Source of the DNA: a virus
Taxonomy: Duplodnaviria > Heunggongvirae > Uroviricota > Caudoviricetes
Length of the DNA stretch: 13,247 bases
Strand: one strand, 5' to 3'
Virus record (IMG/VR): IMGVR_UViG_3300023038_000160
Below are positions 2,028 through 13,165 of the stretch, piece after piece (positions within the stretch are counted from its first letter, which is position 1; the number at the start of each line of letters is the position of its first letter). The notes under the pieces were generated by a model. The model saw only the letters and a list, made by a program, of their open reading frames with translations. It had not been told where the DNA came from and made no database searches. A program made the position numbers and the translations under genes.

Positions 2028-2045
2028 CAGTTAGAGAAGCTCTTG

Positions 2046-2105
2046 TAGAGGCATTATTGAGTTATTGGTTTTAATATTTTTGTGCCTCTATGGGCTTTTT
2101 TTGCC
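2046..2105 (+). terminator. Putative intrinsic terminator after the secreted-protein gene
   Basis: Perfect 8-bp inverted repeat TAGAGGCA (2046-2053) / TGCCTCTA (2083-2090) followed by GGGCTTTTTTTGCCTTTTT; the loop is long and AT-rich, so efficiency is uncertain. Confidence 0.35.
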
Positions 2106-2787
2106 TTTTTGCAATGTAGGAGAGAGCACAGGAATCGTTAAAATTAATTATTGGGGTATTTAAGGTTATTTTCAGGTGATTTAAGGGTATTAAACTTGAT
2201 TTAATTGGTTAAAATATAAACAGATAGTTCTGTATCTTATTGATTTATAAGGTTATTTTTAAATAAAGGTAAATAAAAAATAAATAGCTATAAATACATC
2301 TTAATACCTATATCCCTTCCCTTATGGCTAGATTGCGAGAGGTGCTTAACGCGATTTTCAGCGCCCCCCGATCTGGAAAATCCAGAATCCCCAAATATCA
2401 GCAAGGAATTTCTTGCACAATCAACATCGTTTTTACCTATTAAATCATTACACAGAAAGCCTTTCTGTAATGCCTCTCACTAAACTTTCACTAAACACGA
2501 GAATGATCGGTTTTATGTCGGATCTGATGCTAGAAACAGCACCACGTCTCACAAGGGCTGTAAGCGATGAAACCAGTGTTTATGCGGGTGCGGGTCAAAA
2601 TATAGGCCAAAATCCATTTAACATAATAATCATAATATGCACTAAGGAACACATAGAACGCCTTGAATTGATGTATCATGGGAAAAGTGATGGATTTTTT
2701 ACGTAGGAGCACGAGAGGGCTTCTGTTTACTTTTGTGTGCTATGAAATATAATTAAAGGTTTTTTTGTTTTTATTGTGTGAAGTGGT

Positions 2788-3230
2788 GGATTACACAGGG
2801 GAATAGATTAAATGGTGTTCTGTTTATACAGGTTTATTTGTTAGATCAACAATTTGGCATTTCTAAACAGATGTTTGAACGTTGCCAAATGTCTTGACAA
2901 CACAAGAAAAGGGCTTGCTATGCCACGCATTACACGAAATAAGGCTGTAAAAACAAAATAAATTTTAAAATTTGCACAAACGAGAAAACTCGTTCAGAAA
3001 CAAGCAGAACAATTTTTAGCCAACAATTTCTGATGGTGTGCTGTAAGCCGCATTACACAAGGCTTTGCGAAAGTGATGTAAAAGTGAAGAAAGTAAGAAT
3101 TGCACTTTTAAGCTACTTTTTCATTGAATTTTTAGTATGGAATTACACAGGAATAAGTTAGGGATATTCTATGATTTACACAGGGAATATAGGGGGATTA
3201 TGGCACACACATAGAAAGGCATTACACAGG
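2788..3230 (+). repeat. Array of same-orientation motif copies, consensus G(C/A)ATTACACAGG(G)
   Basis: Copies at 2790-2799, 3142-3151, 3221-3230 (exact ATTACACAGG) and variants at 2929-2937, 3052-3062, 3174-3185; further variants outside this span at 4353-4364 and 4435-4444. Three copies extend to ...CAGGG(G)AAT. Irregular spacing, all on the + strand. Confidence 0.6.
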
Positions 3231-3276
3231 GTGAGTGCTATGTGACAAATGGATGTAACGGTAGGTCATAGTGAGC

Positions 3277-3416
3277 TACCCCCTATCAAGTCTAACAGGG
3301 GTTTATAAAGAATAATAAACCGATGATACCCCTATCAATATTGATACCCCTATTAACTTTGATATGACTACCCCTATCAAGTCTGATACCCCTACCCCTA
3401 TCAAAACTGATACCCG
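3277..3416 (+). repeat. Iteron cluster, core (G/C)(A/T)TACCCCTATCAA, candidate replication origin
   Basis: Direct repeats at 3277-3294, 3325-3338, 3343-3356, 3368-3380, 3385-3404 and a partial copy at 3409-3416, spaced 18-24 bp (about two helical turns), immediately followed by a very AT-rich tract (3417-3490) that could act as a DNA unwinding element. Confidence 0.65.
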
Positions 3417-3489
3417 ATAAGAATAAGTTAATAAGAATAATTAAATAATAATTAAATAATATTCTTTATATCTATATATATATGATTTT

Positions 3490-3660
3490 TTGCCTTCCGG
3501 CGTTAGCTTCACTCTCTGGCAAGCAGCCTTACTCCGCTACCTTTCGGGCTACGTTGGCTGGCCCCGTTCCGCTCACACCGAAAGCAAAGCGTTACTTTCT
3601 TCGTGTAACTATCGTTGGCGGTAACGCCCACGAAGAAATACTATTGCGCTATGCGCAGTA
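3490..3660. other. GC-rich structured patch inside the AT-rich noncoding region; candidate cos/pac-like packaging site, primosome site or structured ncRNA
   Basis: Sharp local rise in GC; nested hairpin TTCTTCGTG(3596-3604)...CACGAAGAA(3633-3641) with inner CGTT/AACG stem; motifs CCGTTCCGCTC and GTTACTTTCTTCGTGTAACT resemble, from memory, the terminase-binding R elements and adjacent sequence of lambda cosB. Not verified by alignment. Confidence 0.3.
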
Positions 3661-3722
3661 AGAGTAATCACCTAACCAATCATACTGATTGCTTATGTGT
3701 TAACTCTATCTCTCTACCTCTT

Positions 3723-3880
3723 AATTCCACTTCCTACATTCTGTAGTTGTGTAATTACTCGAAGAGAGAGCGGCTAAAGCTCAATTACACTCTGCTTTCC
3801 TCGTGTAATTTCACTAAGCCTCAATACAATTCCACTTCCTACATTTAATAACTCTCGTTATTCTCTGTAGTTGTGTAATT
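3723..3880 (+). repeat. Split direct repeat: AATTCCACTTCCTACATT x2 and CTGTAGTTGTGTAATT x2
   Basis: 18-mer at 3723-3740 and 3828-3845; 16-mer at 3741-3756 and 3865-3880; the two halves are adjacent in copy 1 and separated by a 19-bp insert in copy 2. GTGTAATT also occurs at 3809-3816 and, inverted, at 3782-3789. Confidence 0.55.
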
Positions 3881-4509
3881 GTTTTCGGTGGAAAAGCCAG
3901 AGGCGACACCGAAAGAGAATTCTGATCTTATTAATCTTATCTATCTTAGTTATCTTACTTACTTATCTTACTTTATCTACTTTATTATTAATAATAGCTT
4001 TATAAGCTCTATGTAGCTCTCTGACGCAAGAAACAGAGTTCAGGAAGGGAATCACCTTAGAAAAGTGTTCTTTGCGTCATAATGTGTTTTATGAAGGATT
4101 CAGAGGTGTTTCATAACAGGAATGTATAGAGGATACTTTAGGTAATTAAAAATAAGGGGTCTAAATGCTTCTCTAACAGCATTAAGCAGGGTAGAGAATG
4201 GAAACGCATTGCCTACACATATAAGCTCACTACAGAGCTTTACATAGCGTTTTATAAAGTGACTCTCTATCTTATATCTACAATCACCTTTTCATATACC
4301 TAACAAATACAAAATAAGCCCCTTAAATAAGCCTCTGGCGAGCTAAACAGCCATTACATAAGGGAATGTATTGCTTTTATCAAAATCTCGTTAGAACGCG
4401 TTTTAGAGCGTTTTAGACAATAATGAAGAATAGCACTACACAGGAGAGCACGAATTGTTAAGCAAAAATGTAAGTGCATGAAAAAGATCAGTTTTTTTGT
4501 GAAAAGGTA

Positions 4510-4538
4510 TTGACAAATGTTTCTTTATATGTAATAAT
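4510..4538 (+). promoter_or_regulatory. Sigma70-type promoter for the regulator/replication operon
   Basis: TTGACA (4510-4515), 17-bp spacer, AATAAT (4533-4538) with extended -10 TG at 4530-4531; a ~100-nt leader containing a short hairpin and T-run precedes the first gene. Confidence 0.5.
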
Positions 4539-4648
4539 AGGTATTAGAGGGACAGAAAACATTCTTCTCTAAATAATCAAAATCAATGCACTTTGAAGCC
4601 GTCAGGCTTGCAAGGTGTTTTTTCTTTTAACTGAATAAGGAGTTTTTT

Positions 4649-4837
4649 ATGAAATGGTTCACATCTGAGCACGTCGTTCAGGCATTTAAAAAAGGTGAGT
4701 TATCTCGCCACCAAGTAGTAATGAATCGTAATATGGCAAGGAGTCGAGGTTATCCAGAGCGAGCTGCTTGCTTCAATGAAGCACTCAAGATTATTGATGA
4801 ACTAAGAAAAAATGAAAAAGAATCTGAAACAGAGTAA
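4649..4837 (+). CDS. Small putative DNA-binding regulator (62 aa)
   Basis: Strong RBS AAGGAG 7 nt upstream; first gene after the promoter; basic helical segment LSRHQVVMNRNMARSRG. Family not recognised. Confidence 0.5.
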   Translation: MKWFTSEHVVQAFKKGELSRHQVVMNRNMARSRGYPERAACFNEALKIIDELRKNEKESETE

Positions 4838-5027: not shown

Positions 5028-5080
5028 TTTTTATCACCATAGTAGCGCCGTAGAGCGTGATTACATCAAGGAGATTTTTA

Positions 5081-5749
5081 ATGATTAAACATACAAAACC
5101 TTTTTTAGGAATAGATTATGACTTACTAGCAATCACTTCCCTGGTGATTAACGGCAAAACAAAAGAAGTAAAACTACACCATAAGATCATTTATTCTTAT
5201 TTGTTAAGTTTATCTGGCACATACCAAAAGGTAACACCATCTTTGAAAGGTATTGGTGAGCGGTTAGGAGTAGGTACAGATCAGACGGTACGCCGTCATA
5301 TCAAAGATCTTGTTTCTTTTGGATGGTTGAAGATTGAGGAAAGGGCAGGTAGCACAAATGCTTATATTGTCCTTCCTTATGAACAAGAAGCCAAAACACA
5401 ACAAGAAGCTACCGTTAAAGCTGTTCCTGAACAGCTTCCCCCTACAGAAGATAATAAAGAGTCTTCTTTTGATGTTCTTGATGATTGGGATGCGCCTTTG
5501 CCGTGGGAGACGGAAGAAACACCTGTTTCATCAAGTGAAAAGGTAGCTAATGATAATGAGGAGGATGTGTTAGAGAATTTTGCCTCTCTTATCTGCCAGC
5601 AGAAAAACACCAGAACAGGAGGGGCATCCTTTATAGAATTTGCAACATCGTTAGCCTATAAGCACAGGTTAAAGCTACCAAATGGTATTGAGGCATATTT
5701 TTCTAAGAATTACCCAAATGTGTATGATGACTTTGATATTCCATTTTAA
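5081..5749 (+). CDS. Winged-helix protein with acidic C-terminal region; candidate iteron-binding replication initiator
   Basis: ATG at 5081 with AAGGAG 8 nt upstream (the track's 5057 start is a GTG without SD); wHTH-like segment SLKGIGERLGVGTDQTVRRHIKDLVSFGWLKIEE; D/E-rich region in the C-terminal half; located downstream of the iteron cluster. The Rep role is inferred from context. Confidence 0.45.
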   Translation: MIKHTKPFLGIDYDLLAITSLVINGKTKEVKLHHKIIYSYLLSLSGTYQKVTPSLKGIGERLGVGTDQTVRRHIKDLVSFGWLKIEERAGSTNAYIVLPYEQEAKTQQEATVKAVPEQLPPTEDNKESSFDVLDDWDAPLPWETEETPVSSSEKVANDNEEDVLENFASLICQQKNTRTGGASFIEFATSLAYKHRLKLPNGIEAYFSKNYPNVYDDFDIPF

Positions 5750-6168: not shown

Positions 6169-6576
6169 ATGGCAAAAAGAAAAAACAACGTTGTTAAGAA
6201 AATAGGGGATTCAGCTTCTCTTCTAAGTAAACCTAAATCTATTCTAAGACGCAAAGACTTTAAAGAGCTAGTAACGCTCACCAAGCATAATAGCGCCCCT
6301 GGCGAATGGAAAACAGAGATCATAGAACATTCTCCCTCTGTGCCTTGTGGAGATGAATTTAACGCATTACAAGAAATCTTATCTTCAACACCTGGTGTAT
6401 TCTGGAAACCTAGAAAAAGAAAAGAGTATATTGTTGATAGCTCTGATTTACGCAAATACCAGATTTTAGGATTTGAAGACTATAACCACTACGTCGGTTA
6501 TCTCGCCACCAATGGCCTAAATAATTTAGTTCCTGAATTCCAAATTTTAGATAATGCTGATTATGGAGACTTTTAA
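6169..6576 (+). CDS. Hypothetical protein (135 aa), basic N-terminus
   Basis: RBS AAAGGAAAGG 4-5 nt before ATG; operon context; no family recognised. Confidence 0.5.
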   Translation: MAKRKNNVVKKIGDSASLLSKPKSILRRKDFKELVTLTKHNSAPGEWKTEIIEHSPSVPCGDEFNALQEILSSTPGVFWKPRKRKEYIVDSSDLRKYQILGFEDYNHYVGYLATNGLNNLVPEFQILDNADYGDF

Positions 6577-7839: not shown

Positions 7840-8868
7840 ATGATTCTAGGTAATGATTACGTTGATTTAGCTCCTCTGTTCTCTGCGCATAGCACTAGAA
7901 ATTATCTACTGTCTACCCTTGACTTCACTGATCCGGTGGGCGTTAGTTCTCATAAAGTAGCTGTTTCCCAGCTTGTCGAAAGCAACGAATCTCTGTTCAA
8001 CAAAGAAACCTCTCGTTTCTCTTCTGAGCATAACGTGACTAAGCGTGAACAAGGTAAAGAATGGCTGATCGAAATCCCGTATTTTCTTCGTGAAGATGTG
8101 ATTCGTCCTTCTGATGTTCAAGGCAAACGTAAACCTGGCACTGATTTTCAGGAAACACTCACTGATATTTATGCTGAGTATGTTGCTAAACATCACGTAG
8201 CGTATCAGCGTACAAAAGAGAGCGTATTGGCTGCATCTCTGTTTAGTGGTCGCACCTACACGCCTAAAACTGATGATGTTCTTATCGAGTGGGGCAAGCT
8301 GTTTAACGTATCAGCTATGAAAGCCACTGTGAACGCTTCCAGCACTGACACCACGAAGATTTTTAAAGAATTTGATCAGATTGCTACTGACATTATCGAG
8401 AAAGCACAAAGCCAGGCGGCTGCTGTAGAGCGTATTGTTGTTTTCTGTAAGCCGGAAGCCTTCTCTGCAATTCGATTCTCTGCGGGTATGGCAAACGCAT
8501 TCCAGTATGTAAGCCCACTGGAAGAGGGAAATGTTGTGTATCAGCGTCGTGACCTGCTACCAGGGGTGACAGCGTTCACTATTCCAGGAACTAACATTGA
8601 TGTTATTAAACTGGTAGATCCGCTACACCTTGCACATATGACTTCTGATGCGGTTGCGGTTCCGAAGTTTGCTAAAGGCTCTAATGTATATCAGAACATC
8701 TACGGGGCTGCTTCCAGCACCTTTGAACTGATTAATTCCGCTCCTGCTGAGGTGTACAGCTATAGCTATGAATCTTCTCGTGGTGATGCTGTTAACGTTG
8801 TTACAGAGAATAGCCAGATGGTTGTAAACCACGGCGTTGGCTTCTCCGTTCAAATCACTGTAAAATAA
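7840..8868 (+). CDS. Putative major capsid protein, lambda gpE-like (342 aa)
   Basis: RBS AAGGA; length matches lambda E (341 aa); by-eye matches to the recalled lambda E sequence: RIVVFCKPEAFSAIRF vs IIVFDPKGWALFRSF, LAASLFSGRTYT vs SAVLKGKYT, FELINSAP vs FTMIQSAP, and a C-terminal FSVQ vs FVSVQ; followed by a strong terminator. Confidence 0.6.
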   Translation: MILGNDYVDLAPLFSAHSTRNYLLSTLDFTDPVGVSSHKVAVSQLVESNESLFNKETSRFSSEHNVTKREQGKEWLIEIPYFLREDVIRPSDVQGKRKPGTDFQETLTDIYAEYVAKHHVAYQRTKESVLAASLFSGRTYTPKTDDVLIEWGKLFNVSAMKATVNASSTDTTKIFKEFDQIATDIIEKAQSQAAAVERIVVFCKPEAFSAIRFSAGMANAFQYVSPLEEGNVVYQRRDLLPGVTAFTIPGTNIDVIKLVDPLHLAHMTSDAVAVPKFAKGSNVYQNIYGAASSTFELINSAPAEVYSYSYESSRGDAVNVVTENSQMVVNHGVGFSVQITVK

Positions 8869-8886
8869 TATTTTAACGTGTAATAG

Positions 8887-8932
8887 AGGCGTGGCGTGAA
8901 TAACACGCTTCGCCTTTTTTTATTTATTTTTT
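8887..8932 (+). terminator. Strong Rho-independent terminator after the capsid gene
   Basis: AGGCG-tgg-CGTG aataa CACG-ctt-CGCCT stem-loop followed by TTTTTTTATTTATTTTTT. Confidence 0.7.
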
Positions 8933-8955
8933 AAATTTTGAGAGGTGATTAAAAT

Positions 8956-9159
8956 ATGGAAGTGATTCTGAAATCAAAAAATGGTGTACACGTACATTTA
9001 GATGCTAATGATTCTAGAGGCTTGTTAAATCTGAAATATCTATGTTCTCTCCTAGATGTTCCATATGAAGGAGTAAAAGCCCGTATGTTCAGACTAAACG
9101 AGAGTATTGATCAGGCTCTACACCATTTCTTAAGTAAAGAAGGTGGTAAAAATGATTAA
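8956..9159 (+). CDS. Hypothetical protein (67 aa)
   Basis: RBS GAGAGGTGA before ATG; no family recognised. Confidence 0.45.
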   Translation: MEVILKSKNGVHVHLDANDSRGLLNLKYLCSLLDVPYEGVKARMFRLNESIDQALHHFLSKEGGKND

Positions 9160-9174
9160 TAAGGGGGATTTTAA

Positions 9175-11001
9175 ATGTTAGAAATTAACACTTCTAAAAT
9201 TAAGAATACAGTAACATTTAGTGTAGATAAAGACAGCTTAAAAAAAACGAAAGACTCTATTACAGGCTTAAAGGAATTTGCAGAAAACATCAAGCCAGCT
9301 AAATTAAGGTTTGATAGTGTCACTAAAGGCTATAAGAAAGCACAAAGCGAAGTAGACAAGATTGCTCAACAGAAAGCTAAAACAGAAAAACAGAATCAAA
9401 GAGCACAAGCTGCCGCAGCAAGAGCACAGGCAAGGCAACAGGCACAAATAGCAGCACGTAAAGAGAAAGCAGAATTAAAACTTCTCGATGTGTCAAGCTC
9501 TATCAGTGCAATGCACCGTCTCTCTGTAGCGGAACAATACAAAGCTATTGCACAGGCTAGAGAGATAGCAAAACAATATGAGCAAGGCGCTATCTCGCTT
9601 GCACGTATGAATAGCCAGATGAAACGCTTACAACAACAACAACGTAAGATTAATGGCAACAGAAAAGCTCAATTTGCCCCCGTTAAGGGAGGATCAGGGA
9701 ATTCCGCCACTATGGGCGCTCTGTTATTTGGAGGCGCTACGGCTGCTGCTGGCGTGATGGCTGTTAGTAAAACCTCTGAATTTATGGCTAATAGCTTTGC
9801 GAATGCTGAAACACAAGGAGAATTAATCCAACGTGCAAGGCTTGGCGGTGTAGACGTTAACCAGATGTACAACATTACAGAATGGGCGTATAGAAACGGC
9901 GTTGACTCTATGATGGGTGATCAAGGGGCTAGAAAATACCTGGATCAGATGAAAGATGTTAGGGAACGTGCCGCAAAATCCTACAGTGAAGCTGAATTGG
10001 TGAAAGACAAGAAAGGAAAATCTGAATGGAAAGGCGGTGATAACGGTATTAATGAACTTCTAAACATCGGTGTTATTAACAAAAGCGACCTTAAAAAATT
10101 TGCTGATAATCCGGCTGGATTAATTTCTAAGGCTGTTAATGGAATGATGAAAAAAGGGTTTTCAGACTCCCAAATTGGACAACGTTTAGAAGACCTGGGC
10201 GATGATTTGATGCTTACATCAAAATATTGGCAACGTTCCGTTAAAGATGTACAAGAAAGTATTAATCAGCAAAAAGCCTCTGGAAAATGGCTAACAGAAA
10301 CACAGCAAGACTCTATTGTTAAATTCAGAGAACTAAACAGACAGCTTTCACAGCTTTCTGATGCAAGACAAGTAGCATTTGTAGACGGCTTTATGAAATC
10401 TCTCGATCCAAAAGTAACGGAAGAGTTTATGAAAAACCTTTCTAATCTCACTCCGTATTTTACGAAGCTTGGAGAAGCTACAGGAAGTCTCTTTGAAGCC
10501 ATTATGAAGATTGTAAACTGGTTTAATCGTAATGATGATAAGACAGATGCTATTCAGAAAAATATGGGAGATGCACCGCCATTAAGCAATGAAGGAATGA
10601 AACAGAATCTTTCTAACCTCGTTCCTGACCAATATAAAGGCGCTGGCACTGCAACAACTACACCTGATAATACTCATTCCATCTTTAACACAATTAAGGG
10701 ATGGCTTTTCGATGATAATTCTTCTGTGTCAGATGTAAAAATGTCAGTCAGCGAAGCACCGATAACCAATCTCAAACAGGGTGCTTTAAATAATCTTGCA
10801 ATGACAACTCCGGCTTATAATTTATCTCCTGTGTTTAATCTGAATCCTACATTTGAAGTGGTAACAGAGGTTCCTCTTACTATTAATTCTGACACATCAA
10901 GATTAAGCGATTATGTGGATTTTACAGCGAGAGCAAGTCGGGATAGCTTCTTGAAATCATTAACATTAACCAGCTTATCAGGACAATCTAACGGCGGGTA
11001 A
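9175..11001 (+). CDS. Large coiled-coil protein with Gly/Ala-rich hydrophobic segment (608 aa); candidate scaffold, tape-measure-like or ejection-type virion protein
   Basis: RBS AAGGGGGA; N-terminal ~170 aa rich in Q/A/K/R (AQQKAKTEKQNQRAQAAAARAQARQQAQIAARKEKAELK), then GGSGNSATMGALLFGGATAAAGVMAV (~9697-9775), then an S/T/N-rich C-terminal part. Function inferred from composition only. Confidence 0.55.
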   Translation: MLEINTSKIKNTVTFSVDKDSLKKTKDSITGLKEFAENIKPAKLRFDSVTKGYKKAQSEVDKIAQQKAKTEKQNQRAQAAAARAQARQQAQIAARKEKAELKLLDVSSSISAMHRLSVAEQYKAIAQAREIAKQYEQGAISLARMNSQMKRLQQQQRKINGNRKAQFAPVKGGSGNSATMGALLFGGATAAAGVMAVSKTSEFMANSFANAETQGELIQRARLGGVDVNQMYNITEWAYRNGVDSMMGDQGARKYLDQMKDVRERAAKSYSEAELVKDKKGKSEWKGGDNGINELLNIGVINKSDLKKFADNPAGLISKAVNGMMKKGFSDSQIGQRLEDLGDDLMLTSKYWQRSVKDVQESINQQKASGKWLTETQQDSIVKFRELNRQLSQLSDARQVAFVDGFMKSLDPKVTEEFMKNLSNLTPYFTKLGEATGSLFEAIMKIVNWFNRNDDKTDAIQKNMGDAPPLSNEGMKQNLSNLVPDQYKGAGTATTTPDNTHSIFNTIKGWLFDDNSSVSDVKMSVSEAPITNLKQGALNNLAMTTPAYNLSPVFNLNPTFEVVTEVPLTINSDTSRLSDYVDFTARASRDSFLKSLTLTSLSGQSNGG

Positions 11002-11035
11002 TTCCCGCCATAACATTACAAGGAAAATTATTATT

Positions 11036-11749
11036 ATGGCGACCGCCGGGATTTTAACCATACGTGCAGCAAATACTCCAGAACAACACGTTCAGGCTGT
11101 TTACAAAGCAGAACAAGATATAAACTCTACAAAAAACGAAAATAGCAAAGCTAATAAAACAAAAGGAGAAAATGGGTTTGCTATTGTTACCAGTGGCTTG
11201 GCATCTTCTGGCAATGACGTTTATGAAAATTATATGGCACTGGCCTTTGACAGTGTTGACGATGTGAACGTGAGACGTTCGGCAGATGTTACAAGCTACC
11301 CCGTAGAAAATGGTGCTACTGTGTCTGATCACGTTCAAATTAAAAACAATAAGTTTTCTCTTAAAGGAAGGATCACTGAAACACCGATTAAAAGCGATCC
11401 TGGCTTGTTAAAGAGTGCAGGGGTGAACGGGAACAGAAGATCATTAGCTATCGACTACCTGAATCAGATTATGGACAGTAGACAGCCTTTTCTTCTTGTT
11501 ACAGAAAATAAAACTTTTGAGAACGTTGTTTTAACAGGAATCGAATACACAGAAGAGGCAAGCGAATCCCTGGTATTTGATCTTAGCTTTGAGCAAATAA
11601 GATTAGTTTCTTATGGCACTGTGAACACTGTAGCTATCAAAACACAGCCATCTAAGAACATCGGGGCTAATATGAAAAAACGTGTTAACACTGAAAAATC
11701 AAGTAGTGAAGGTGAAGACACTATTACTCCTGCCTTTAAACAGGAATAG
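11036..11749 (+). CDS. Hypothetical protein (237 aa), possible virion-associated protein
   Basis: RBS AAGGAAAA; same operon as the 608-aa gene; no family recognised. Confidence 0.5.
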   Translation: MATAGILTIRAANTPEQHVQAVYKAEQDINSTKNENSKANKTKGENGFAIVTSGLASSGNDVYENYMALAFDSVDDVNVRRSADVTSYPVENGATVSDHVQIKNNKFSLKGRITETPIKSDPGLLKSAGVNGNRRSLAIDYLNQIMDSRQPFLLVTENKTFENVVLTGIEYTEEASESLVFDLSFEQIRLVSYGTVNTVAIKTQPSKNIGANMKKRVNTEKSSSEGEDTITPAFKQE

Positions 11750-11790
11750 CTGTAAATGCCTCTAAAACGCTCTGTAACGATGTAATTATA

Positions 11791-11823
11791 AAAGAGGCTA
11801 CCAATCTATGTTGAAGCCTCTTT
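11791..11823. terminator. Bidirectional terminator hairpin between convergent genes
   Basis: Perfect 9-bp stem AAAGAGGCT / AGCCTCTTT with additional CAA/TTG pairing in the loop; AT-rich flanks on both sides; sits between the 237-aa gene (+) and the integrase (-). Confidence 0.5.
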
Positions 11824-11830
11824 ATTGCGT

Positions 11831-13165
11831 CTATGGCGTTGTTTTACGCCTTAAATTTGATTTTTTATTGATTGATAAGCCTTTCTCTATTTCAGGGTAG
11901 CGTAGAAGCTCAATATATTTTTTAAGCTCTACTGGAGAAGCTGCATTCTTGCTATATGTGCGGAATGTCTCTGTATTGCCGCGTGTATGGCCCAGGAGAA
12001 GGGCGATCCTGTCTTCTGGAATTTGATTTCGATCAAGAAGCTGTGCTACTCCGTGTCTCAGAGAATGAAACACCTTCCTTTCTGTTCCCTTTTCCCCTAA
12101 AGCCTTTCGTTTAGCTCTTGTAAATCTCTGCGTGTGCCACGTAGAGCGTTTACCATCAGCACGCTCTGTAATGCTGGCGTGATAGAACAAAAAGCCATTA
12201 TGAGGCTTTTCACGCAGCGACAACACCAACGGAGTGATAAGGCTATGTACAGGCACAACACGTGCCGCAGCTTTCGTTTTTCCCTGTGTGATTTCAAAAC
12301 ACAGCACACCTTCGATCTCTTTCACATCGTCTATTGTGAGACTTGCTATCTCATTGATCCGCATACCTGTATATAAACCGATAAGACACAAAGCTATCAT
12401 TTCTTTGTTTTCTGCTGAATTACCGGAAAATACTTGCAACACCTGCAATAGCTCTTTGTTAGAAAATGCCTCGTAGCTCTCTCTACTTTGTGCCACATCA
12501 AGCCTATGCCCTCGCCAGGGGGAGAGCGCCCTTTCTGGCGCATCGTGGTAACGTGATGAAGCTAACTCCCATAGCTGGGCCATTGGGCTGATATAATTTG
12601 CAATTGATTGTTGTGAAAGGGTTTTTTGCATGTGTTCAATCCAGCCTGTAACAGTGGTGCGGCTTACATCTTGCAATGCAATATCAGGCTTTTTACGGTA
12701 GGAGAGAAACATCTCTACCGCTTTTCTTGCCTTAGCTAAAGTGGCTGGCTTCTTCTTCGTGCTGTTAATAGTCAGGTAGATTTCAAGAATTTTAAGCAAT
12801 GATGGACACGAAGACGCTGTATCTTGCATTCTGGTAGCTGTTTTGGCGTATTTAGCCTTACTGCGTAACAGTTCCAGCGTGTTCTCTATTGTGCTGTTTA
12901 CAGGAGCGACACTCTCGCGTAAGCAATGGTATTCATCTGCAATCTGATCACGCTTTCTACGTGCAACACGAAGATTACTTGTGTGCAGACTCCTGACAAA
13001 CGTCCTTTTTCCTTCAAAAAAGGGCTGCATATACACAGGCAGCGTGATCCTTAAATAGTAGTTACCGTAAGAATCACAGATTATGTATTGATTGGGCTTG
13101 TATCTCATAAACTCCCCGGCTAAAGTGTCGGAGCGTTTGTAATGTGAAAATTGATTGTAACGCAT
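11831..13165 (-). CDS. Tyrosine recombinase / phage-type integrase (444 aa) with N-terminal arm-binding-like domain
   Basis: Catalytic signature visible in the translation: TGMRINEI (Arg), HSLRHG (His-x-x-Arg), LLGHTRGNTETFRTYS (His and catalytic Tyr). An alternative start at 13108 (MRYKPNQ..., GGGGAG 3 nt upstream) is possible. Codon composition looks more GC-rich than the rest of the island. Confidence 0.85.
   Translation of the reverse strand: MRYNQFSHYKRSDTLAGEFMRYKPNQYIICDSYGNYYLRITLPVYMQPFFEGKRTFVRSLHTSNLRVARRKRDQIADEYHCLRESVAPVNSTIENTLELLRSKAKYAKTATRMQDTASSCPSLLKILEIYLTINSTKKKPATLAKARKAVEMFLSYRKKPDIALQDVSRTTVTGWIEHMQKTLSQQSIANYISPMAQLWELASSRYHDAPERALSPWRGHRLDVAQSRESYEAFSNKELLQVLQVFSGNSAENKEMIALCLIGLYTGMRINEIASLTIDDVKEIEGVLCFEITQGKTKAAARVVPVHSLITPLVLSLREKPHNGFLFYHASITERADGKRSTWHTQRFTRAKRKALGEKGTERKVFHSLRHGVAQLLDRNQIPEDRIALLLGHTRGNTETFRTYSKNAASPVELKKYIELLRYPEIEKGLSINKKSNLRRKTTP

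Follow-up and report, generated by a model that had tools for sequence, protein, structure and literature searches.

We analysed a 13,247-nt stretch of Caudoviricetes DNA (IMG/VR record IMGVR_UViG_3300023038_000160, hereafter the window) and consider its gene-free part at 2713–4648 to be, probably, the cis-acting control region of a ~13 kb island at a tRNA-Thr gene that resembles a satellite of virulent phi92/phAPEC8-type myoviruses. The control region would hold three elements, namely a replication origin (~3262–3915), an operon control segment (4235–4648), and a conserved block (2787–3261), and a short sequence just to its left (2327–2372) likely acts as a packaging signal. The iteron origin and the terminator-gated promoter are well-founded predictions, and the island is probably a satellite of virulent Stephanstirmvirinae comparable to PLE, the element of Vibrio cholerae that resembles phage-inducible chromosomal islands. 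Sites, conservation, covariation, and the match to the helper are directly seen, and from them we infer binding, origin firing, antitermination, and packaging. The island is bounded by a tRNA-Thr(CGT) gene (23–98) and a tyrosine integrase gene at the far end of the window (11831–13165, minus strand), between which a single plus-strand operon starts at 4649. Loci of relatives and phages are designated L001, L002, and so on.

Conservation and non-coding character of the gene-free stretch

As judged by comparison across lineages, the DNA of the gene-free stretch is under constraint. Its outer blocks are better conserved between lineages than most island genes. In distant lineages, the right block (4235–4648), which is the best-conserved island DNA between lineages, aligns at 97% coverage with 78–79% identity, and a part of the left block is 82–85% identical, whereas the capsid, tape-measure, and Dit genes fall to 0–71% in the same comparisons and most early genes are unalignable. 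In the close relative L001 the region is 94.8% identical, as compared to 94.7–96.4% for genes. The preliminary description had named at least five classes of repeats or structures in this stretch. These are real and comprise ATTACACA sites, CCCCTATCAA iterons, hairpin repeats of 36 nt, tandem repeats (CT-rich ones and GCGTTTTAGA), and several inverted repeats. Its proposal that DNA sites or RNAs carry core functions here is supported on comparative grounds by conservation, iteron–initiator co-variation, the promoter with its leader terminator, and hairpin covariation.

The open reading frame (ORF) list and an independent scan agree that 2713–4648 contains no ORF of at least 60 aa on either strand; the longest ORF within it has 59 aa (3482–3661, plus strand) and the longest stop-free run 72 codons. 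Statistically, a run of this length is nothing unusual. Using shuffles and first- and second-order Markov simulations as null models, 23–33% of 2000 sequences of the same composition (G+C content of 35.7%) likewise lacked an ORF of at least 60 aa, and the ORF-free run is thus normal for non-coding DNA of such composition and no anomaly. The absence of ORFs shows that the DNA looks non-coding and nothing more; conservation is what matters. The gene-free stretch is probably longer than reported, extending from ~2028 to 4648. Both bordering ORFs, 2413–2706 (TTG) and 2530–2712 (GTG), have non-ATG starts, had no protein family match in Pfam or PHROG, and have no RefSeq gene annotated at their place in relatives. 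Gene-free gaps in the annotation of relatives measure 1.7–3.0 kb, and across the integration sites a gap of 1.5–3.0 kb lies, in every case, between a variable cargo slot and the operon.

That the region is decayed coding DNA or encodes small proteins of less than 60 aa is extremely improbable. The 59-aa ORF is just below the cut-off and several ORFs of 30–45 aa exist, but the small ORFs of 30–59 aa are disrupted by frameshifts or stops in relatives at 88–95% identity, a 14-codon ORF over the terminator is missing in lineages L014 and L015, and the ten longest stop-free segments of the region yielded nothing credible in Pfam or PHROGs. Conservation is also concentrated in repeats, dyads, and hairpins, and indels are not multiples of three. 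An Rfam scan of the whole window (E up to 1) returned only the tRNA and three chance matches, all outside the region.

Predicted replication origin

A lambda-type replication origin is predicted, with good support, at ~3262–3915. The CCCCTATCAA iterons occur five times (0.64 expected); the last four are spaced 18–24 bp apart, while the first is isolated 49 bp upstream. An AT-rich segment is found 3′ of the iterons in every iteron type examined. The putative initiator, encoded by the operon, matches Pfam HTH_36 at 1.2e-7 and PHROG replication-initiation families, including O-like ones, at ~1e-10.

Four or five iteron families occupy the same position and sort with initiator type. The CCCCTATCAA iterons are common to the window, L001, L012 (initiator 92% identical), and Citrobacter L011 (45%), L013 and L015 (initiators 70%) share one iteron type, and L002 and L014 (97%) share another. 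Iterons of other lineages at this position have a spacing of 22–24 bp and differ in sequence (ACAGAAnnnTGTTA, GGAAATGAGTTCC, TGTAACGAnnnGTTACA, TAGGTCAnnGTGAnCTAGGGGG). The unit of the single dyad site GGTAGGTCATAGTGAGCTACCCCC, which precedes the array in the window, is itself the main iteron array in L016 and L021, with 3–5 tandem copies at 22–24 bp spacing. The C-terminal part of the L016 initiator is near-identical to that of the window (80 of 88 residues over 144–230), its N-terminal DNA-binding domain is unrelated, and the L016 iterons differ too. The iteron type thus changes together with the initiator N-terminal domain, which is the pattern expected of a cognate initiator–iteron pair.

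The core at 3518–3574 is near-invariant while its flanks drop to 68% identity. A pattern scan recovered it from 10 viral-contig and 56 metagenome loci, located 3′ of the AT-rich segment and combined with at least five iteron types. In the proposed mechanism, the O-like initiator would bind the dyad iterons, the AT-rich segment would unwind, and the core and hairpins may serve helicase or primase entry on the unwound DNA, like the ori-lambda palindrome or plasmid single-strand initiation signals. Ori-lambda consists of dyad iterons, an AT-rich segment, and a palindromic segment, and lies inside the O gene. The predicted origin shares with it an O-like initiator, 4–5 dyad iterons at about two helical turns, an AT-rich segment, and a palindromic, G+C-richer segment. 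Unlike in lambda, the iterons are situated ~1.6 kb upstream of the initiator gene (5057–5749) and not within it, the palindromic part is ~400 bp long with an invariant core, and no P-like helicase loader gene was recognised in Pfam and PHROG scans of the window proteins. Being outside the initiator gene, the origin would work like ori-lambda in the absence of the lambda arrangement.

The O157-type island L016 carries remnants or arrays of four iteron families in tandem at 9600–10010 (TGTAACG, CCCCTATC, ACCTAGGAAATGA, and TAGGTCA..CTAGGGGG), as if origins were reassembled through the insertion of modules.

Hairpin cluster at the predicted origin

Only within ~3590–3900 do folding z-scores reach −3 to −5.7, and those of the whole block are −6.9 (plus strand) and −8.3 (minus strand). 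Six sequence types can all form a P1/P2/P3 three-way junction with Watson–Crick pairs. A covariance model (R1) built from one sequence type recovered the other types, with 33 loci in addition to 3594–3701 of the window on the plus strand. In the R1 alignment, 96% of cells are paired, as compared to 75.6% in shuffles and 27–42% with partners slid, both sides changed in 22 of 33 pairs, and the covariation score of 0.372 (versus 0.112) was reached by none of 500 shuffles; since the alignment was fitted to the model, these numbers are biased towards structure, although they exceed the controls by wide margins. With MAFFT alignments of the divergent sequences, RNAalifold had missed the inner helices through register errors, which was solved by the covariance model. 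Comparing the E. coli type with those of L011/L004 also revealed compensatory changes in the hairpins at 3702–3914.

The pairs comprise 756 Watson–Crick, six G–T, and four A–C among 794 cells. G–T is as rare as A–C, so the structure is equally good on both strands, as for DNA inverted repeats, and strand assignment by these counts gave no preference. As pairing is almost purely Watson–Crick and the core has no conserved sigma-70 promoter upstream, we consider a role of the DNA itself, in helicase or primase entry, more likely than an RNA. The main rival, which we regard as unlikely, is that the core and hairpins (~3518–3915) represent a plus-strand structured non-coding RNA, i.e., a primer, a regulatory RNA, or an anti-helper small RNA (sRNA) like SviR of PLE or CI of P4; the middle of the region would then consist mainly of RNA content and not of DNA sites. 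Strong covariation of the three-way junction and further hairpins and the folding z-scores would suit such an RNA, as would the P3 loops, which on the plus strand are mostly GNRA-like (GTAA, GAAA, GTGA, GAGA). The same applies to the constant orientation of GCGCTGTGCGC: all E. coli and Citrobacter lineages checked have one or two copies of this motif, without exception on the plus strand, and it is kept even in lineages with an otherwise unrelated middle section. The PLE non-coding region reportedly encodes an sRNA as well. On the other hand, the rarity of G–U pairs, the lack of a conserved sigma-70 promoter 5′ of the core and of a terminator 3′ of it, and the lack of an Rfam match all argue against an RNA; some P3 loops are not GNRA (ATAA, GAA, CAAA), and complementarity to the helper genome is not beyond chance. 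GNRA-like loops stabilise DNA mini-hairpins too. Single-strand initiation signals (G4-type, phiX-type) and stable GNA/GNRA DNA mini-hairpins occur at plasmid and phage origins. The cluster resembles such signals as a group of short hairpins beside an unwinding element with Watson–Crick pairing and GAA/GAAA/GTAA loops, but is not known to share sequence with them; this is a lead, and no membership is claimed.

Lineages without the hairpin cluster keep TTGCGCTGTGCGC after a different hairpin (AGCCTACGGCTTGCGTAAGGCT), possibly as a shorter counterpart that serves the function of the origin-proximal element.

Control of the operon

Nine islands show no variation in the −35 element of the predicted sigma-70 promoter, and Citrobacter, Kluyvera, and Buttiauxella have equivalent promoters; the transcript should start near 4545. 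The leader stem-loop persists although its stem varies, in at least five versions (AGAA/UUCU, AGGAA/UUCCU, GGGGAGA/UCUCUCC, GAAGG/CCUUC, GUUCUG/CAGAAC). The intrinsic terminator precedes the first gene's ribosome-binding site by ~10 nt. Its stem shows compensatory changes among E. coli lineages, and its position is occupied by three unrelated terminator hairpins, one in E. coli/Citrobacter, one in Kluyvera L008, and one in Buttiauxella L007 (four genera). Terminator position and 5′ hairpin survive sequence replacement, which argues that the arrangement is functional and that the operon would be gated by termination.

No divergent repressor gene is located upstream of the operon. Transcripts would stop after ~85 nt unless termination is overcome, presumably by helper infection or by the island's own first gene product (basic, 62 aa). 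The constitutive-looking promoter, short structured leader, and terminator are reminiscent of leader termination in P4/P1/N15 (CI, C4, CA RNAs) and of lambda N/nut, and the A-rich loop of the 5′ hairpin recalls lambda boxB. Unlike in these systems, the leader lacks a boxA consensus as well as complementary seqA/seqC-type repeats, no N-like or Q-like factor was found, and Rfam C4 gave no match; the likeness is at the level of mechanism. Comparison of leader motifs with the helper genome returned one 12-nt match inside its direct terminal repeat (DTR), which is in opposite orientation and was judged to be due to chance.

A 42-nt inverted repeat (74% complementary, including GCGTTTTAGAG) at 4374–4415 and 11753–11794 brackets the whole operon. 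Its downstream copy is kept solely in the window's lineage (window, L001, L016), and it was rejected as a general feature of the island.

Left conserved block and dispersed sites

The backbone common to recombinase-bearing relatives begins at 2787, at the first ATTACACAGG. The left block at 2955–3261 is conserved at 74–87% in all E. coli lineages, with most invariant positions within 3040–3155. Its invariant core, ATGTAAAAGTGAAGAAAG...ATTGCACTTTTAAGC, consists of two conserved arms flanking a variable loop (3070–3119). Seven exact copies of ATTACACA were identified (0.58 expected), all inside 2447–3879, a number reached by none of 200 shuffles. ATTACAC copies are concentrated in the left block on the plus strand, and minus-strand copies are specific to the window's lineage. 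Because ATTACACA shows no enrichment in the helper genome BME3, it was rejected as a helper promoter or site. The inverted repeat at 2851–2889 is 84–85% conserved in Buttiauxella L007 and Citrobacter L011 and has a weak co-linear likeness to an inverted repeat within the phi92/BME3 DTR (p ~0.02).

The region could alternatively be a recombination or inversion site for small serine or tyrosine recombinases, acting in multimer resolution or rendering a segment invertible between opposed ATTACAC copies. Relatives indeed encode a 183-aa serine or 192-aa tyrosine recombinase directly left of the region, beside the inverted repeat that is conserved across genera; the junction of cargo and backbone coincides with the first ATTACACAGG (2788), and ATTACAC is on the plus strand left of the origin and on the minus strand right of it. 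However, the window and many relatives (L001, L002, L016) retain the region without such a recombinase, the minus-strand copies belong to the hairpin stems of a single lineage, and the island alignments are all co-linear, with no inverted variant among the loci fetched, all of which makes this explanation very unlikely.

Similarity to putative helper phages

Outside 2713–4648, the window carries a candidate packaging signal that matches phage DNA. BLASTN searches against phages with 2713–4648, 3490–3910, and 3030–3240 as queries gave only chance-level matches, and the helper match surfaced only on comparing the flank (2000–2700) with a helper genome. Against the BME3 genome, this flank has a 40-nt perfect match at 2333–2372. 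The 46-nt match (44/46) is present in 62 phage records, almost all of phi92 type (Stephanstirmvirinae) as judged by their names or genome sizes. In phi92 it occupies 318–363 of the minus strand, across the inner end of the 343-bp left DTR; the phi92 repeat ends with ...GAAAATCGCGTTA, and exactly there the island copy runs on into phage unique sequence. The phi92-type boundary copy is present in 11 related islands. L013 has no such copy and instead contains an 83-nt match (81%) spanning the boundary of the 328-bp DTR of phAPEC8-type phages. Two island lineages each copying the boundary of a different helper genus points to a packaging/terminase signal and a satellite life-style, and 2327–2372 is probably a packaging or terminase recognition signal, with terminase use being presumed. 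We do not claim that 2341–3113 is a stretched version of the whole helper DTR; the comparison gave two weak co-linear matches (p ~0.02 and ~0.15), which have no equivalent in L013.

Structural proteins of the island also have counterparts in these phages. The Dit-like protein is 60% identical to the BME3 protein after the tape measure, and the capsid protein is 22% identical to that of BME3 over its full length. The tape-measure-like protein is 32–37% identical to its Justusliebigvirus and Phapecoctavirus counterparts and 32–54% identical to that of BME3 over aligned segments. The island may build or alter both helper heads and tails. It encodes an integrase with site-specific integration and lacks a full set of virion and packaging genes: no terminase, portal, sheath, or tube was detected among the window ORFs in Pfam and PHROG scans, no ORF but those for the integrase, capsid, and tape-measure-like proteins is longer than 250 aa, and no ORF is large enough for a terminase or portal. 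The interpretation as a PLE-like satellite is based on the DTR-boundary copies and on the tail protein with 60% identity to its phi92-like counterpart.

The order of the capsid, tape-measure, and Dit genes in the island (7840–11749) mirrors that of phi92-like phages (BME3, L028, 13619–22806), in which it is decoration protein, major capsid protein ... small ORF, tape-measure protein, and post-tape-measure protein. An N-terminal stretch of 23 residues (AANTPEQHVQAVYKAEQDINSTKN) is identical in the island and phage Dit-like proteins. Two sequences in the phi92 (L031) terminal repeat, AATGATAATCATTATC and ATGATAATGCAAATGATAATTATTCTCATTGATA (75–100 and 262–295), resemble the Fur-box consensus. Several 146-kb 'Campylobacter phage' records (e.g., MG065639) have phi92-type terminal-repeat sequence and are likely mislabelled.

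Comparison with known systems and significance

PLE of Vibrio cholerae is an integrated island of 13–18 kb and a satellite of the lytic myovirus ICP1. It has its own initiator and an iteron origin in a large non-coding region with regulatory elements, is packaged by the helper via a helper-like signal, and remodels the ICP1 coat protein through the scaffold TcaP. The island described here appears similar in being integrated and in having its own initiator, a long non-coding region with a predicted iteron origin and regulatory elements, and a helper-like boundary copy. It differs from PLE in that the two have no sequence relationship, that it codes for its own capsid, tape-measure, and Dit homologues, and that it has an Enterobacteriaceae host and a DTR phage as putative helper.

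Several observations weigh against the interpretation as a control region of a satellite. About half of the region (2787–3261 and 3916–4234) is without an assigned role, the region contains no DnaA-box or IHF consensus, and the extended hairpin cluster, whose P3 loops mostly suit RNA, is missing in some lineages (L002 and others). No antiterminator was identified in the island or helper, and no helper-genome sequence resembles the leader. ATTACACA is not enriched in BME3, and the presence of ATTACACAGG among relatives does not track the island's Arc-like protein. The candidate packaging signal lies outside 2713–4648, though inside the same gene-free stretch.

Control regions of this kind are known from lambda, P4, phage-inducible chromosomal islands, and PLE; the combination and the apparent helper are new as far as established. 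No paper describing such an island was found, but most subscription journals were outside the search and an earlier description is possible. We further propose, with confidence evenly divided, that the stretch may be the hub of an undescribed satellite family of phi92/phAPEC8-type myoviruses, an enterobacterial counterpart of PLE characterised by genus-specific DTR mimicry, swapping of iteron and initiator-domain modules around a fixed origin core with a new covarying structured element, and a leader terminator unlocked by infection. If true, phi92-, phAPEC8-, and rV5-like phages, which are widely considered for phage therapy, have a parasite whose working centre is a common but unannotated part of E. 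coli chromosomes, and the islands could block such phages or spread on them. The system would be a tractable E. coli counterpart to Vibrio PLE/ICP1, with the 46-nt packaging-signal candidate and an origin of exchangeable specificity modules around an invariant core as testable handles, and the terminator-gated promoter may show by what means a lytic phage can be detected in the absence of a repressor gene.

Table 1 Positions of predicted and observed features in the window and, where indicated, in related loci
Feature	Position	Strand	Remarks
Copy of helper terminal-repeat boundary, candidate packaging signal	2327–2372	+	44/46 nt match
ATTACAC(A/G) array	2447–3879	both	dispersed sites
ATTACAC(A/G), plus-strand copies	2447, 2790, 2929, 3052, 3142, 3221, 3784	+	variant TTTACACAGG at 3175
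ATTACAC, minus-strand copies	3749, 3803, 3873	−	within hairpin stems right of origin
Inverted repeat ATTTGGCA...TGCCAAAT	2851–2889		adjoins variable cargo/recombinase slot
Left conserved block with ATTACACAGG sites	2955–3261	+	alignment of 9 islands
Single dyad site GGTAGGTCATAGTGAGCTACCCCC	3262–3285	+	conserved in alignment of 9 islands
Five iterons CCCCTATCAAnnnnTGATA, each with internal dyad	3280–3418	+	predicted initiator-binding sites
AT-rich segment (~70 bp), predicted DNA-unwinding element	3419–3490		read from sequence
Invariant 57-nt core GGCAAGCAGCCTTACTCCGCTACCTTTCGGGCT.CGTTGGCTGGCC.CGTTCCGCTC	3518–3574	+	
Covarying structured element	3594–3701	+	three-way junction 3595–3638; GCGC-TAT-GCGC hairpin 3646–3656; hairpin 3669–3699
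Further hairpins	3702–3914		repeat units 3721–3756, 3826–3880; closing hairpin 3883–3914
CT-rich short tandem repeats	3925–3988	+	period 9–13; specific to window's lineage
Inverted repeat, 14-nt arms (12/14 complementary), 30-nt loop	4022–4079		
Right conserved block upstream of promoter	4235–4509	+	presumed operator/regulator sites
Right-block elements GGCGAGCTAAAC; dyad TACATAAGGGAATGTA; tandem GCGTTTTAGA	4355–4370 (dyad); 4398–4417 (tandem)	+	conserved, look operator-like
Predicted sigma-70 promoter TTGACA-17-(TG)nAATAAT	4510–4538	+	11/12 consensus matches
5′ leader stem-loop, A-rich loop	4544–4572	+	formed by 8/9 leaders folded
Predicted intrinsic terminator, 12-bp stem then UUUUUUCUUUU	4588–4629	+	between promoter and ribosome-binding site of first gene (ATG 4649)
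Putative replication initiator cognate to the iterons (230 aa; HTH_36; resembling O or DnaD)	5057–5749	+	
TTGCGCTGTGCGC with different hairpin	L005 5175–5286; L002 9849; L013 9752; L014 9690, 9788; L015 10130		
Recombinase genes in cargo slot	L012 8331–8870; L013 8246–8797; L014 8186–8737; L015 7919–8497; L007 3747–4328		

Gene content, integration sites, and distribution of the island

The operon encodes two small proteins, the 230-aa HTH_36 protein, several proteins of unknown function, and structural proteins, namely a major capsid protein of the lambda-E type, a tape-measure-like protein of 608 aa, and a Dit-like tail protein. The region 2713–4648 was matched in 800 of 5426 complete E. coli genomes (~15%), with matches over at least 80% of its length in 225 (~4%), and the matched region was never under an annotated gene, insertion sequence insertions excepted. 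Relatives of the island occur in Citrobacter, Kluyvera, Buttiauxella, and other genera. The same architecture is found at thrW, a tRNA-Gly gene, a tRNA-Leu gene (Buttiauxella), and the thiM thiamine pyrophosphate (TPP) riboswitch. The Sakai prophages Sp1/Sp2, which occupy thrW in O157, and CP-933H were rejected as candidates and are different elements from the island.

The variable cargo slot is located between the tRNA gene and the conserved backbone (left of 2787 in the window). In many relatives it contains a minus-strand gene for a small serine recombinase or for a tyrosine recombinase of 192 aa, and in the window one for a 183-aa secreted-looking protein (1476–2027; PHROG of unknown function) instead. 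The relative in L012 is truncated to the origin region, two small genes, and the initiator and is without structural genes. It lies in an island that has its own integrase and a GmrSD gene and sits within the thiM TPP riboswitch, with a copy of the riboswitch at each end (L012 3713–3808 and 12603–12699). Contig JAEWTL010000083.1 (L010), from a metagenome-assembled genome titled 'Bacillota bacterium', has an E. coli-type island behind tRNA-Thr and is likely mislabelled. A comparison of the small proteins with PADLOC defence models gave two weak matches to one candidate family (PDC-S05, E 0.002–0.007). An exact 16-nt direct repeat, GTTATCTCGCCACCAA, is present at 4699–4714 and 6497–6512 of the window, within two different operon genes.

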